Shown in pieces: positions 17,957 to 51,049 of a DNA stretch of 64,000 nt. The position numbers and the translations under genes were made by a program. Source of the DNA: Octopus vulgaris (lineage: Eukaryota). Position 1 is the first letter of the stretch. Each line of letters starts with the position of its first letter. Below the pieces are notes generated by a model. The model was not told the origin of the DNA and did no database searches. It was given only the letters and a program-made list of their open reading frames with translations. The stretch is taken from the NCBI GenBank assembly GCA_951406725.2, contig OX597820.1, positions 124,620,001 to 124,684,000 on the forward strand. The letters run 5' to 3'.

Positions 17957-18245
17957 GCGCGCTTTAAACCACTACGCCACATCGCGTAGTGGTTAACAGC
18001 GCGGGATACTAACCCCAAGATACCGAGTGAGATTCCAGGCAGTGACCTGAAGGATAGTAATAATAATAATAATAATAATAACAACAACATCGAAAAATAC
18101 CTTAGGAATGTGAACCCACGTTCGAAATTTCCCCAAGACACCTGATGAAGGCTGGAAAGTATATCAGCCAAAACATTTGTGTTAACAACAACAAGATGAG
18201 GACGAATATCCGTCAAATATAAATAATGTAAATAATGTAAATTAT
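17957..18245 (+). mobile_element. PLE family C 3' module: short inverted 5' arm, tRNA-like head, (AAT)n, HHR, (AATGTAAAT)n tail
   Basis: gcgtagtggttaa (A box)...gagtgagattcc (B-box variant), AAT run 18058-18088, gacacctgatgaaggctg...cagcc. 17957-17977 is an inverted copy of 17984-18003. Confidence 0.8.
18137..18183 (+). ncRNA. Degenerate minimal type I hammerhead (family C)
   Basis: GACAC-CUGAUGA-A-GGCUG-loop-CAGCC-AAAAC-AUUU-GUGUU. Stems I and II pair; GAAA is changed to AAAA, whereas the 25126-25130 copy keeps GAAAC. Confidence 0.65.
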
Positions 18246-18830
18246 TAAGTAGACGTAACAAATATATTGGAGATGGGCAATTTGCGGTCACTCTCACCAT
18301 AGTTTATTCAGGATCTCTCACTCTCTCGCACCCTCTTTTTCTCACACACACATACATGCATATAGGCATACACACACGCGTATACATATTTATGCATGTG
18401 TATGAAGTGTAATCACATACATTACTTTATAATGTGCTTACATAATAAAATTATATTCCCTTAGAAATTGCATATTTCTTTCTACTTAATTTACTTGTTC
18501 ACACTCTCATTGATATCTTAAAATATCACAAATGTACACTGCAGCAATTTACTGAAAGCAAATTTTCTAAGAATTTTCCTCAAAGACATCACAGCAGGAA
18601 TGAATGACTGCACAGCTATGTGACCTGCCTACAATGTTACTTTATAAATTGTCACCATCCAAACAACCATTAAATTTCGAGCATAGTTCCAGTTTCCTTT
18701 CAAATAATACGTCTCCTGCACATATCTGAGTATCGGTCAACACACTTATTCAATCACTAAAATCAAATGTACACGATTCTATACCCCAACTATTTTGAGA
18801 CAGTGAAATGGTTTAAAGGTATTCTATCCA

Positions 18831-19065
18831 AAGGCGGCGAGCTGGCAGAATCATTAGCACGTCGGGCGAGATGTCGAACGGCATTACGTCTGCCGTTACG
18901 TTTTGAGTTCAAATTCCGCCGAGGTCGACTTTGCCTTTCATCCTTTCGGGGTCGATTAAATGAGTAAAGTTACGCACTGGGGTCGATGTAATCGACTTAA
19001 TCCGTGTGATTGTCCTTGTTTATCTCCTGTGTGTTTAGCCCCTTGTGGGTAGTAAAGAAATAGGT
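18831..19065 (+). mobile_element. SINE family B, full monomer with ~15-bp target-site duplication
   Basis: A box tggcagaatc, B box gagttcaaattcc, central gcctttcatcctttcggggtcgat domain. TSD aggtattctatccaa (18817-18831) / aggtgttccatccaa (19062-19076). Confidence 0.9.
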
Positions 19066-19660
19066 GTTCCATCCAAGAGGATTTTACTTAAATCTACGTT
19101 TTAGGAATTAATTTAGGTGATGTTTACTGGCAGTTTCACTTCCCATAGAAAACATGTGCCTTTCCAGCAAATTTTGATGTTCTATACTTATGGTATGTTA
19201 AATTTTCTTTAATATTGAAGATGAAATAGAAATCTGTGTTTAGAGAAATTCGCCACGAATATGATAGAATCAAAATTTATTGAAATATATTTATGTCTGC
19301 TTTTCATCGAAACGCCAACAATTTCTTGTGACCTCTTACCAGAAAGTTCATTGTAAAATATGCAGAACAAATTATATAGTAATACTCTATGTACACTTTA
19401 ACATAATATTTCTATTCGTAGATTTTTAAGTTTCTATTTCTGTTCCTTTTACCTTCCATAGTAACCATTCTACAAATAATAAGTTCCATAAAACTGACTT
19501 CCAGTTTCGAGTATTTATTTGGTGTGTGTTAAAGTGAACTCTTGCGAGAAAGAAAAAAACCCACATAAGTACCAATATTTCGGTCTCAAACCAATTGCAT
19601 GTACACCCTTGTGTCTCTTCAACCTGTGTAAATGTATATGACGCAGAATTTATACTTTCC

Positions 19661-19727
19661 CTCTCTCTCTCTCTCTCTCTCTCTCTCTCTCTCTCTCTCT
19701 CTCTCTCTCTCTCTCTCTCTCTCTCTC
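19661..19727. repeat. (CT)n microsatellite
   Basis: Perfect CT run. Confidence 0.95.
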
Positions 19728-20706
19728 TTTCGCGCTCTCTTTCTCACCCCCTCACATACATACACAAACAAATATCTGATTTCGTGTGTGTTTACATATA
19801 TAGATATAAGTCTCATATGTAATTTTATCATATATACAAATCATAATTTCAACTCCACTGTATCACGATGCTTATACAAACACACGCAGAAAGAAATCAC
19901 ATACACAATTTCCATCTCTGTTTTTTAAAAAAACATTCAGGTGCCATTTTATATGAAAGCATTTTGTGATTTAGATCACCCAGAGAAACCACTTTGTCCC
20001 TGAAAGAAATATTACTGCATATTGTGTTACGTTAGCTAACAGTTCCATTTTTTACCATTTAGCTTTTTTAAGATGTATTGCATCCGAGGGGAAATATTGC
20101 TTTCGGGGTATACAGTAGCATTCATTTCCTTCTGTAAGAAAGGGAACTATAATTATGCGCGCGCACGCACACACACAAGACACACACGCACACAGACAGA
20201 GAAACACACACACACACACACACACACACACACACACACACACACACACACACACACACACACACACGCAGATTCTAAATATTTCCAGAAGTCTATGTTA
20301 TTCCTGTCAACAGCAGCTAGTAAAGAACGTATGAGACCAGGGTTATATTTCGCTGCAAATAAAACATTACTTGCTGCTTTAGGAGAGAGAAAAAGTACAA
20401 GATATTATTCACAATAGATAATGGTTTCTCGGCTATACATCGTGTACTCATTTTTATATCATGTCGCAGAATTAGCCGTATTGTAGCTATCAAAAGAGCA
20501 TATCCTATCTATCTATCTATCTATCTATCTATCTATTCTATCTATCTATCTATATATATATATATATATCTATATATATATATATATATATATATATATA
20601 TATATATATATATATATATATATATATATACATATATATATATATACACATATATATATATATACATATATATATATACATATATATTTATACATATACA
20701 TATATA

Positions 20707-20864
20707 CGACGGTCTTCTTTCAGTTTCCGTCTACCAAATCCACTCCCGAGGCTTTGGTCGGCCCGAGGCTATGGTAGAAGACAATTGCCCAAGGTGCCAC
20801 GCAGTGGGACTGAACCCGGAACCATGTGACTAGTAAACAACCTACTTACCACACAGCCACTCCT
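20707..20864 (-). mobile_element. SINE family A, 5' half only, ending in an expanded (TA)n
   Basis: The head and body match 52919-53085 and abut the ~200-bp TATC/TA tract at 20504-20706. Confidence 0.85.
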
Positions 20865-50200: not shown

Positions 50201-50351
50201 CCTTCACACATACATTTCTATACATATATCTATAGATAGATATATAACTAGATAGATAGAGAGATAGGTAATATCTAAATGCGTGACGCAGTGTAAATAG
50301 CATTCTCCGAATGATCTATAGCCTTTAGACATCGAAATGTCACTTGAAACA

Positions 50352-50421
50352 TCCAATACACCTTTCACCGTTGCAGCTATGTAGAGTTCGAAATAGCTGC
50401 AATGGTGAAAGGTGTATTGGA
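50352..50421. repeat. 70-nt near-perfect hairpin
   Basis: tccaatacacctttcaccgttgcagctat-[12-nt loop]-atagctgcaatggtgaaaggtgtattgga: 29 bp with one G-U pair. Confidence 0.9.
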
Positions 50422-50477
50422 GCTAAATATCTATACTAATGTTTATCTTAATTATCCACTAAGCATGCACTTTATTT

Positions 50478-50832
50478 ATATTATTTACATTTGACGGATA
50501 TTTGTCTTCATCTTGTTTGTTGTTATCCCTCCAGCCTTCATCAGGTGTCTTAGGGAAATTTCGAACCTGGGTTCTCATTCTTATGGTATGCCCGTGGGCA
50601 ATTAAGGAGTGAATTTTAGGGCTTATAAATCTAATATTTTCCTATCTTTCCTTAATACCGGTTCCCATATGCTATTCATATCTGCACTCGAACTGCTTAG
50701 GAGGTCGTTCTGTCCTAGCATATGTGCCGCTTTTAGTTTTTGTATTTTCCAGTGGTGTTCTCTGTCTACTATTTTAACTTCATCCGACGGTGGGATCTCC
50801 ATTTTCCATACATGATCAGCTATACCCGATTT
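50478..50832 (-). mobile_element. PLE family C, 5'-truncated: GIY-YIG C-terminus plus internally deleted pLTR
   Basis: Minus translation KSGIADHVWK..DEVKIVDREHHWKIQKLKAAHMLGQNDLLSSSSADMNSIWEPVLRKDRKILDL*. The tRNA/AAT block is deleted at ~50588; gacacctgatgaaggctgg is retained. Confidence 0.85.
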
Positions 50833-50835
50833 ATC

Positions 50836-51049
50836 AATGTTGTTATAATAATAATAATAATAATAATAGTAATAATAATAAAAATAATAATAACAACAAC
50901 AACAACAATAATAATAATAATAATAATAATAATAATAATAATAATAATAATAATAATAATAATAACAACATCGAAAAATAACTTATGAATAGGAACCCAA
51001 GTTCCAAATTTCCCCAAGATACCTGATGACGGCTGGAGGGTATATCAGC
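50836..51049 (+). mobile_element. Inverted partial pLTR of family C (AAT run plus the 5' part of the HHR)
   Basis: (AAT)n-catcgaaaaata...aaatttccccaagatacctgatgacggctggagggtatatcagc, in the opposite orientation to 50478-50832. Confidence 0.82.

Follow-up and report, generated by a model that had tools for sequence, protein, structure and literature searches.

A tRNA-like head in the pseudo-LTR of an octopus Penelope-like element lies where most of its short copies begin

INTRODUCTION

A 64-kb stretch of octopus DNA (the window) holds several fragments of one repeat unit that joins the end of an open reading frame (ORF), a tRNA-like head with A and B boxes, an (AAT)n array, and a hammerhead motif. 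An earlier note on this DNA read the unit as a candidate ribozyme-bearing SINE, mobilized by a Penelope-like element (PLE) whose pseudo-LTR (pLTR) had captured a tRNA-derived promoter. The locus thus raises two questions, namely, whether the short copies form a lineage of their own or are pieces of the PLE, and why so many of them begin at the head. Our analysis assigns the module to an autonomous PLE and suggests that RNA polymerase III (Pol III) probably starts the element's RNA at the head, which would explain where the copies begin.

RESULTS

The module is the pLTR of an autonomous PLE

The window module is the pLTR of an autonomous element of the Penelope/Poseidon type. The unit runs from ORF end through the A/B-box head, (AAT)n, an ATG, and the hammerhead into the ORF for reverse transcriptase (RT) and GIY-YIG endonuclease; a near-full-length copy (L174+L220) comprises a 5′ pLTR, an ~2.6-kb ORF, and a 3′ pLTR ending at the tail. 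In this ORF, the RT domain PF00078 was matched, and the C-terminal endonuclease motif CVYSIPCSC..Y.GET (CVYSIPCSCGRLYNGET) is present, although Pfam gave no score there. Relatives 36 to 61% identical (P0001-P0022) share the domain order, RT then GIY-YIG, and the Atlas clusters for L284, a distant intact metagenomic PLE, likewise combine RT and GIY-YIG. The linker is devoid of a cysteine cluster in the alignment with relatives (A1), as described for EN+ Penelope/Poseidon PLEs (PMC8557442), and pLTRs occur in direct and inverted arrangement, as in EN+ PLEs, which may also have a 30- to 40-bp tail. A profile search of the PDB returned no PLE structure, and viral contigs contained no relatives; prokaryote assemblies yielded two PLE pieces.

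The ATG between (AAT)n and the hammerhead is in frame with the RT ORF, and its frame stays open across the hammerhead and the Asn-Val-Asn (NVN) repeats, for 495 codons in the majority sequence; this hammerhead-encoded peptide is also found at the N terminus of relative P0009. The (AATGTAAAT)n stretch, formerly taken for a tail, is actually coding sequence that specifies Asn-Val-Asn in frame at the N terminus of the ORF. A second end lies ~30 to 35 nt past these repeats and is reached by many copies. A GT..AG intron in the NVN region, downstream of the hammerhead, was considered and rejected, as translation from the upstream ATG runs through this region without a stop.

A chance or misassembled juxtaposition of two unrelated repeats, the head and the PLE end, through AAT microsatellites is highly improbable. 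The AAT run is indeed a place where other elements insert (14/98 copies), but dozens of loci, spread over many contigs, keep the order ORF end-spacer-head-AAT-hammerhead, and the same parts are joined in reads from other organisms; this recurrent order and the near-full-length copy refute such an artifact.

Four insertions in the window

The window fragments match one another by BLAST with E values of 1e-16 to 1e-55. The places and overlap tiling of the five fragments originally listed were confirmed, but they amount to four insertions, since 50478-50838 (minus strand) and 50850-51049 (plus strand) are head-to-head arms of a single one. Insertion A (plus strand unless stated) opens with another inverted arm, a short fold-back of the head at its 5′ junction (17958..17983, minus strand; BLAST self match 18003-17958). 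The tRNA-like head, with an A-box remnant and an altered B box, follows (17984..18051); an (AAT/AAC)n array (18056..18091) separates it from the ATG, hammerhead, and NVN repeats (18108..18245), which constitute the PLE ORF start and first 3′ end site. The hammerhead itself (18137-18183) has a mutated GAAA core. Insertion B (minus strand) has a complete 76-nt head that starts at +1 (25322..25397), followed by (AAT)n, ATG, a damaged hammerhead (25153-25121), and NVN repeats (25062..25321). Inspection of the sequence confirmed that this copy starts exactly at the GGG of the head, with unrelated flank upstream.

Insertion C (minus strand) retains the GIY-YIG-side 3′ end of the ORF plus spacer (40845..41005) and a head with an internal deletion and an expanded microsatellite, after which there is no hammerhead (40604..40844). 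The minus-strand arm of insertion D/E includes the last 70 codons of the PLE ORF (50623..50838), in which SADMNSIWEP, part of the ORF end given in the earlier note (..SADMNSIWEP..stop), is in frame, and then spacer, the first 7 nt of the head (the remainder being deleted), ATG, half a hammerhead, and NVN repeats (50469..50622). Its inverted arm carries (AAT)n, the pLTR core, and a hammerhead cut in stem II (50850..51049, plus strand). Sampling of 60 segments of 10 kb at fixed positions yielded 6 loci, a number by comparison with which the window is enriched and from which a rough genome-wide figure of ~28,000 loci can be drawn (Poisson range, ~10,000 to 61,000).

All four hammerhead-bearing copies in the window are damaged, as had been observed. 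The accompanying view that the active form exists solely as a reconstruction did not hold, since intact cores occur elsewhere in the genome (17 sites, which fall in 15 of the loci L001-L150; 0/4 sites in a random 600 kb). Intact sites fit the minimal type I fold, with CUGANGA, stem II, GAAA, a palindromic minimal stem III, NUH, and stem I; position N7 of the core varies among A, T, and C, and the palindrome duplex is computed at −4.1 kcal/mol. The motif is thus a PLE minimal type I hammerhead and a predicted ribozyme. Ordinary RNA-seq, a method that cannot test self-cleavage, gave no RNA end peak at the hammerhead, and among the 150 of 269 matches listed, an Rfam scan of the whole window gave only microsatellite-driven miRNA matches.

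Most copies begin at a degenerate tRNA-like head

The proposal that a tRNA-derived A/B-box segment sits inside the pLTR of the master PLE was borne out by loci anchored at the ORF end, which run into spacer and head; in this set of 30, all those listed continue to spacer and head or to a deleted head. Both boxes equal the consensus in the family majority, and there is indeed no TTTT between head and hammerhead. A functional tRNA or cloverleaf was rejected, the head no longer folding as a tRNA. ARAGORN found no tRNA gene in the window, and with a relaxed score it called none on a head close to the majority sequence; Rfam matched locus L020 to neither tRNA nor hammerhead. Relaxed ARAGORN calls on relatives were noise (25 calls in 12 stretches). 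Among 33 genomic tRNAs for 7 amino acids, the best match was Arg(TCG), with 46/73 positions; Arg(TCT) and Ala score close to it and are candidate donors as well. An imperfect 10-bp palindrome spans head positions −6 to +4.

The peak of 5′ breakpoints at the head that the earlier note had predicted is present: 48 of the 53 hammerhead-anchored copies reaching head position +25 end at −10 to +25. Altogether, 63 of 98 such copies have a head, the other endpoints being +26 to +76 (9 copies), upstream (5 copies), and one cut by the fetched interval; 35 are headless, among them the 14 masked by elements inserted in the AAT run. The background breakpoint hazard is 7 to 10% per 35 nt, and the head peak retains a binomial P of <1e-9 even at 50%. 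The search sets consist of top-scoring rather than random matches, with breakpoints curated by eye; in a position-picked sample, 4/4 heads begin at −8 to +2. Most 5′ ends cluster between −7 and +15, spreading over ~25 nt rather than falling on a single base. Four junctions from ORF positions +234 to +254 to the head lie at −6/−7 (L155, L160, L161, and L172), and in copies containing the ORF start, the upstream pLTR also begins at the head (L167, +4, continuing 876 nt into the ORF; L172, −4). That 48/53 copies stop at −10 to +25 suggests that the head marks the RNA start. Pol III typically starts 13 to 14 nt before the A box, and the outer edge of the 5′ ends lies 13 to 14 nt upstream of this box.

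A rather unlikely alternative is that the head is a passenger in the pLTR, with Pol II starting nearby, a long RNA being processed, or the RT stalling or joining at the palindrome. Palindrome-centered fold-backs account for 12/48 head-start junctions, which would fit such a passenger, but the remaining 36/48 are not palindrome-centered. The palindrome may itself attract junctions. A passenger head would also leave unexplained why the A and B boxes are perfect while the tRNA stems are not, and why the outer edge coincides with the expected Pol III start. As for RNA processing, the degenerate stems make RNase P cleavage improbable. On the other side, protein-coding RNA needs translation, and Pol III products are translated poorly. 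In addition, the promoter of Drosophila Penelope was measured as internal, of Pol II type, and within the pLTR (PMC2377424).

T runs, the distant element L284, and RNA-seq

Depletion of T runs is modest (P of 0.03 to 0.05), and this statistical weakness speaks for a passenger head. The majority sense strand, whose depth is only 4 to 5 in mid-ORF, has no run of four or more T's in 2,749 nt versus 3.1 expected (dinucleotide shuffle, P ~0.03), and the TTT share of Phe codons is 6/19 versus 55% for other Y-ending codons (Fisher, 0.043). Among control PLE stretches, 3/21 are T4-poor as well (L289, L293, and L307), the TTT bias of L312 is nearly equal (0.056), and several other retro-ORFs in the genome also favor TTC.

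L284 repeats the A/B-box-(AAT)-hammerhead layout, which argues against a passenger: after its stop codon come an A box, a B box, a short AAT run, and the ATG with hammerhead, an arrangement reproduced by 5/20,000 spacer shuffles. A single contig represents L284, with an exact tandem that may reflect assembly collapse. It has two T4 runs and no T5, with TTT at 7/21 versus 62% (0.012); its T-run depletion alone gives a P of 0.2 under synonymous shuffling. The A/B pair is missing from the other PLE 3′ untranslated regions examined, all of which have T5 runs (5/5). The stretch occurs in sequencing runs assigned to six organism labels. For a related organism, RNA-seq showed equal depth from both mate directions and no start or end peak. 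Depth at the ORF end is ~1.3 to 2 times under that at the head, a drop weaker than 48:5 predicts, in reads that are cut at the AAT run, split over two places in the head, and uninformative for short uncapped RNA; in the X1 contigs, the head versus ORF-end ratio is roughly 3 to 15 times.

Short copies are likely solo pLTRs

The 3′ ends of short copies are bimodal (23/43 and 17/43, ~30 to 35 nt apart), resembling the PLE tail (PMC11167929), and at least 28/43 bear an inverted arm, a mark of PLE-type integration. Target-site duplications (TSDs) are nearly absent, with 1 plausible case among 15 copies lacking an automatic inverted call. At every position listed, the majority letter does not differ between head-start and ORF-linked copies, and minor variants occur at similar frequencies in both; no diagnostic variants emerged from this modest sample (heads, 28 ORF-linked versus 70 head-start; cores, 25 versus 50). 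Like SINE2 elements, the copies have a 5′ tRNA-related head with A and B boxes. The LINE-type 3′ tail of SINE2 and, but for the one plausible case, its TSDs are missing, the 3′ ends being internal sites of the PLE, and the variant comparison revealed no source elements separate from the autonomous partner. Shared variants, a "tail" that is the PLE ORF start, few TSDs, and inverted arms all speak against the separate SINE lineage of the earlier note; the short copies are likely solo pLTRs and no self-propagating family.

We therefore regard as improbable a Pol III hammerhead SINE that propagates itself, mobilized in trans by the PLE and not dependent on the ORF-bearing master. In its favor, the ratio of short head-to-tail copies to ORF-linked ones is ~10:1, and solo copies retain the A/B boxes as well as the two RT start sites. 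Derivatives that have internal deletions and common junctions recur at separate places (L160/L161; L152, L153, L156, L162, and L178), and in L011 a head precedes a tandem array of 7 hammerhead units that lacks an ORF, so nonautonomous forms appear able to spread; 276-bp tandems are also present, most copies being monomers. Against such a SINE stand the lack of diagnostic variants between solo and ORF-linked copies and of a TSD pattern, as well as the ends of solo copies, which lie 115 to 155 nt inside the ORF and so leave out part of the 172 nt of ORF that the Anolis Poseidon protein requires in its template (PMC11167929).

DISCUSSION

The evidence favors pieces of an autonomous PLE pLTR whose copies mostly begin at the A/B-box head, probably because this is where Pol III initiates the element's RNA. 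Transcription by Pol III is inferred from sequence, and the RNA start would lie ~6 nt before the head, judging from the outer edge of 5′ ends and the template-jump junctions. The element's own RT would copy this RNA from internal sites just within the ORF, putatively 115 to 155 nt in, by analogy with measurements on the Poseidon element of Anolis. Copying from the upstream pLTR would yield the 250- to 290-nt solo copies, and copying from the downstream pLTR would yield ORF-bearing, 5′-truncated ones. Copies spanning the hammerhead would derive from uncleaved RNA. The head itself may have arisen when a tRNA-derived retrocopy or simple SINE that ended in (AAT)n inserted into the 3′ untranslated region.

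The octopus element resembles Penelope/Poseidon PLEs such as Drosophila virilis Penelope and Anolis PAc. They share a single ORF with RT and C-terminal GIY-YIG, pLTRs, inverted 5′ arms, two 3′ ends ~30 to 40 nt apart (PMC11167929), and a minimal type I hammerhead that overlaps the start of the ORF and has an unpaired base ahead of stem II (PMC11167929, PMC4209133, and PMC8557442). In contrast, Drosophila Penelope has an Inr/DPE-type promoter and an intron (PMC2377424), whereas the octopus PLE has an A/B-box head and (AAT)n and needs no intron; its sense strand, unlike that of Penelope/Poseidon PLEs, is devoid of T4 runs.

Three kinds of element already known prefigure parts of this layout, namely, the Pol III hammerhead repeats of Schistosoma, Helenus with its tRNA in the LTR, and PLE-derived retrozymes. 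The Schistosoma SINE-like repeats SM-alpha and Sj-alpha combine a Pol III-type promoter with a downstream hammerhead (PMC6765202), a precedent for part of the architecture of which the earlier note knew no description, but they are noncoding tandem units, whereas the octopus module lies inside a protein-coding PLE and has a minimal, dimer-type hammerhead. Non-LTR retrozymes comprise pLTR-derived hammerhead monomers and tandem arrays (bioRxiv 10.64898/2026.07.22.740005; PMC7229834), as in L011, yet most octopus copies are monomers starting at the tRNA-like head, and the text of that preprint mentions neither tRNA nor polymerase III nor promoter. TRIMp3 elements (Helenus, Cassandra, and Ajax) captured a small-RNA-derived Pol III promoter in a terminal repeat but are nonautonomous LTR elements (PMC10886601), whereas the octopus head sits in the autonomous PLE itself. 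RTE-1_DAn also has a tRNA-like sequence within an autonomous LINE (PMC5786205).

New here are the T4-free 2.7-kb sense strand and the recurrence of the A/B-box-(AAT)-hammerhead layout in distant L284. The open full-text literature yielded no Pol III-headed PLE architecture, and the family is perhaps already in Repbase, Dfam, or SINEBase. Octopus tRNA-derived SINEs, reportedly described by Ohshima and Okada in 1994 with a tRNA-Arg origin, have tRNA-derived heads as well, a likeness by description only; the short PLE copies could be among them.

More tentatively, these data may delineate a class of autonomous coding PLEs that Pol III transcribes end to end, with a tRNA-derived A/B-box promoter placed in the pLTR immediately ahead of start codon and hammerhead and with T runs purged from the 2.7-kb sense strand, Phe codons included. 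Since the layout occurs in both the octopus genome and distant L284, it would be ancient or have arisen twice. If such end-to-end reading is true, SINE-like solo copies may be a by-product and one route from PLEs to Schistosoma-type Pol III hammerhead repeats. It would also break the assumption that autonomous retrotransposons need Pol II, which PMC10886601 makes for the autonomous partners of TRIMp3, and raise the question of how translation proceeds on an uncapped RNA whose first codons contain a ribozyme. Intact L284 makes the Pol III reading directly testable.

To conclude, dead copies in the tens of thousands serve to map an RNA 5′ end together with both RT start sites, and the mapped 5′ end coincides with a tRNA-type promoter. 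The element is likely a rare jumping gene started by Pol III, not a separate ribozyme SINE, and some of the SINE families annotated in genomes of this kind may be solo PLE pLTRs.

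Family copies in the window and the genome

All five fragments described in the earlier note are present and overlap as it stated, but they represent four insertions: 50469-50838 (-) and 50850-51049 (+) join head to head as the two arms of a single insertion, and the stretch 17958-17983 forms a short inverted arm. A long inverted repeat (50359-50423) lies just past the tail of this head-to-head insertion, outside the element. Every hammerhead in the window is damaged, as had been noted; the active form is nevertheless not confined to a reconstructed consensus, for 15 of 150 loci carry intact cores, at 17 sites in all. 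Sixty 10-kb stretches at fixed positions of the 2.8-Gb genome (227 contigs) contained six family loci, relative to which the family is enriched in the window, and a rough genome-wide total is ~28,000 loci. This position-picked sample also holds a 1,146-codon open frame resembling an endonuclease-RT retroelement (L108, - strand), possibly a young LINE.

A tRNA-like head within the pLTR of an autonomous PLE

Own-genome searches were anchored on the head (the tRNA-like A/B-box segment), hammerhead, ORF end, and ORF start, with the best 40 matches taken for each. Among the matches listed, ORF-end copies continue into the spacer, head, (AAT)n, and hammerhead. A near-full-length copy (L174 with its extension L220) comprises an upstream pLTR, a broken ~2.6-kb ORF with an RT domain (PF00078) and a C-terminal CVYSIPCSC endonuclease motif, and a downstream pLTR that stops at the tail, just inside the ORF start. 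Thus, the head is built into the pLTR of an autonomous Penelope/Poseidon-type element, and the promoter capture by a master PLE suggested earlier is real. Full-length structure was seen at 1 of 30 ORF-start loci, many others being mini-tandems or internal deletions. In the features tested, the element agrees with Penelope/Poseidon PLEs, and its hammerhead with their minimal form. The stretch between (AAT)n and the hammerhead contains an ATG in the reading frame of the ORF, whose N terminus is encoded by the hammerhead and the AATGTAAAT repeats; the latter are therefore not the mere tail they were taken for, and the related PLE protein P0009 has the same hammerhead-encoded N-terminal peptide.

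The family majority sequence has a perfect A box and a perfect B box, its tRNA stems are degenerate, and no tRNA was called on the head in the window or on a near-majority head. Among 33 genomic tRNAs, a sample limited to seven amino acids, Arg(TCG) matched best (46/73), narrowly ahead of Arg(TCT) and Ala.

The (AAT)n of nine pLTRs (L059, L189, L193, L195, L207, L217, L235, L240, and L245) houses the same 3' end of another retroelement, whose translation resembles an R4/Dong-type C terminus, and a second repeat lies likewise in L035, L037, L206, L216, and L234.

Copies mostly begin at the head

The upstream DNA of 98 hammerhead-query copies (39 non-self, 39, and the first 20 of 39 matches) was aligned to the family majority, and breakpoints were curated by eye. 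The head was not visible in 35, of which 14 have other elements lying over it in the AAT run. The 63 head-bearing copies have their 5' ends at +26..+76 (9 copies), at -10..+25 (48), or farther upstream (5), +1 being the first base of the head, and the remaining one ends beyond the fetched DNA. Against a background loss of 7-10% for every 35 nt, this pile-up (48/53) is far beyond chance, and these copies do show the 5' peak at the tRNA-like head that the earlier note proposed to look for. Heads in the position-picked sample start at -8..+2 in four of four cases, none with the ORF.

The outer edge of the 5' ends is -7..-5. An imperfect 10-bp palindrome spans -6..+4 of the family majority, at the presumed RNA start; 12 of the 48 5' junctions are centered on it and 36 are not, and in fold-back junctions there the central dinucleotide may be either one, a pattern suggesting that two cDNA ends annealed. 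In the mini-tandems L155, L160, L161, and L172, four junctions connect ORF +234..+254 with head -6/-7, without ORF past the tail, and are read as template jumps from an RNA 5' end. An A-rich insert resembling a short poly(A) sits in one of the L172 junctions. The upstream pLTRs of the ORF-start copies L167 and L172 likewise start at the head, so transcripts from that point reach no less than 876 nt beyond the tail.

Short copies as probable products of the master element

Among 43 head-start copies with both flanks, at least 28 bear an inverted arm, and 1 of the remaining 15 shows a plausible target-site duplication. The 3' ends are bimodal (23/43 and 17/43 copies, 30-35 nt apart), and solo copies stop short of the 172 nt of ORF that the Anolis Poseidon-type PLE, PAc, needs (PMC11167929). 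Majority letters and minor variants are common to head-start and ORF-linked copies (28 ORF-linked versus 70 head-start heads and 25 versus 50 cores, each set leaving out loci retrieved by a query on the part compared); the few positions with nominal P<0.05 reflect CpG decay or gaps. Therefore, the short copies are best read as RNA products of the master element, reverse-transcribed from the upstream pLTR. The independent ribozyme-SINE proposed earlier is probably a wrong label: the shared variants, the inverted arms, and the single target-site duplication all speak against it, two SINE traits, source elements of its own and a LINE-type 3' tail with target-site duplications, did not show in the copies compared, and we give it little credence.

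Nonautonomous derivatives do exist, including two sets of mini-tandems with a common junction (L160/L161; L152, L153, L156, L162, and L178). ORF +121 is joined to the pLTR core in L152, L153, L156/L163, L162, and L178 (all on contig C29) and in L159 (C3), a headless, internally deleted derivative of 276-bp period; the identical junction recurs in a number of locations whose flanks differ and which cluster on a single contig. Locus L011:300-1580 (-) has one head followed by seven hammerhead units of 188-197 bp, resembling a retrozyme array led by a Pol III-type head.

T-run depletion and a distant relative

Over the 2,749 nt that separate the ATG from the downstream head, the majority sense strand has 31 A4 runs and no T4 run, where shuffles expect 3.1-4.1 (P 0.02-0.03), majority depth mid-ORF being only 4-5. 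Phe is TTT in 6/19 codons, the T share of the remaining two-fold Y codons being 55%. Of 28 metagenomic loci of related PLEs, many with too little flank to show a pLTR, 22 were analyzed. One, L284 (38% to P0009), has an intact ORF in an exact 2,791-nt tandem and, past the ORF stop (L284:2760-3030), an A box, a B box, a short AAT run, and an ATG plus hammerhead, a box layout matched by 5/20,000 shuffles. Its A-to-B spacing exceeds that of a plain tRNA; an intron or long arm is possible. The L284 unit has two T4 runs and no T5 run, and Phe is TTT in 7/21 versus 62%. In five intact ORFs that lack an A/B pair, T4 runs number 9-18, more than expected, and T5 runs occur in 5/5 other PLE 3' UTRs.

Counted against the Pol III reading, three control stretches are also T4-poor, the control L312 approaches the same Phe bias, and other retro-ORFs of the O. 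vulgaris genome often favor TTC; for L284 alone, synonymous shuffling is not significant (P 0.2). A Pol II start or RNA processing as the source of the 5' ends is considered rather unlikely. L312 and L313 are PLE RT pieces inside prokaryotic MAGs (Buchnera and Nitrospirales), probably host contamination.

Reads sampled at ~6% from three RNA-seq runs each on a related organism, mapped on L175, gave equal mate directions, no start or end peak, a drop of only 1.3-2-fold from head to ORF end, and ~100-fold lower depth past the tail, which looks like passive transcription of old copies and speaks neither for nor against a Pol III product.

Proposed mechanism and known systems

Given the layout, the clustering of both 5' and 3' ends, the inverted arms, and the common variants, all of them observed, we lean toward a Pol III start at the head combined with copying by the element's own RT from internal ORF-start sites. 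Pol III would initiate ~6 nt before the head, and the RNA would continue through the ATG and hammerhead and enter the ORF with no terminator on the way. The element protein would bind in the ORF start and prime at two internal sites, yielding 250-290-nt head-to-tail copies from the first pLTR and ORF-bearing truncated copies from the second. Inverted arms may reflect two cDNAs joined head to head. By analogy with PAc, whose hammerhead-spanning copies were found to derive from uncleaved RNA, such copies may do so here.

In PAc, the ORF is described as beginning within the hammerhead, with two RT initiation sites ~111-118 nt into the ORF (PMC11167929); the octopus element likewise has its ORF start in the hammerhead region and two 3' end sites inside the ORF. 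Other reports already document a Pol III promoter with a hammerhead in Schistosoma repeats (PMC6765202), a tRNA inside the terminal repeat of Helenus (PMC10886601), PLE-derived hammerhead repeats in retrozymes (bioRxiv 10.64898/2026.07.22.740005; PMC7229834), and, in one sentence, a tRNA-like sequence in the autonomous LINE RTE-1_DAn (PMC5786205). We found no report of a tRNA-type promoter in an autonomous-PLE pLTR in the open full-text literature, the scope of this search; in Repbase, Dfam, SINEBase, or the octopus SINE paper of 1994, the short form may already bear a SINE name. Tentatively, a protein-coding PLE might be transcribed entirely by Pol III, an arrangement that might recur in a distant lineage.
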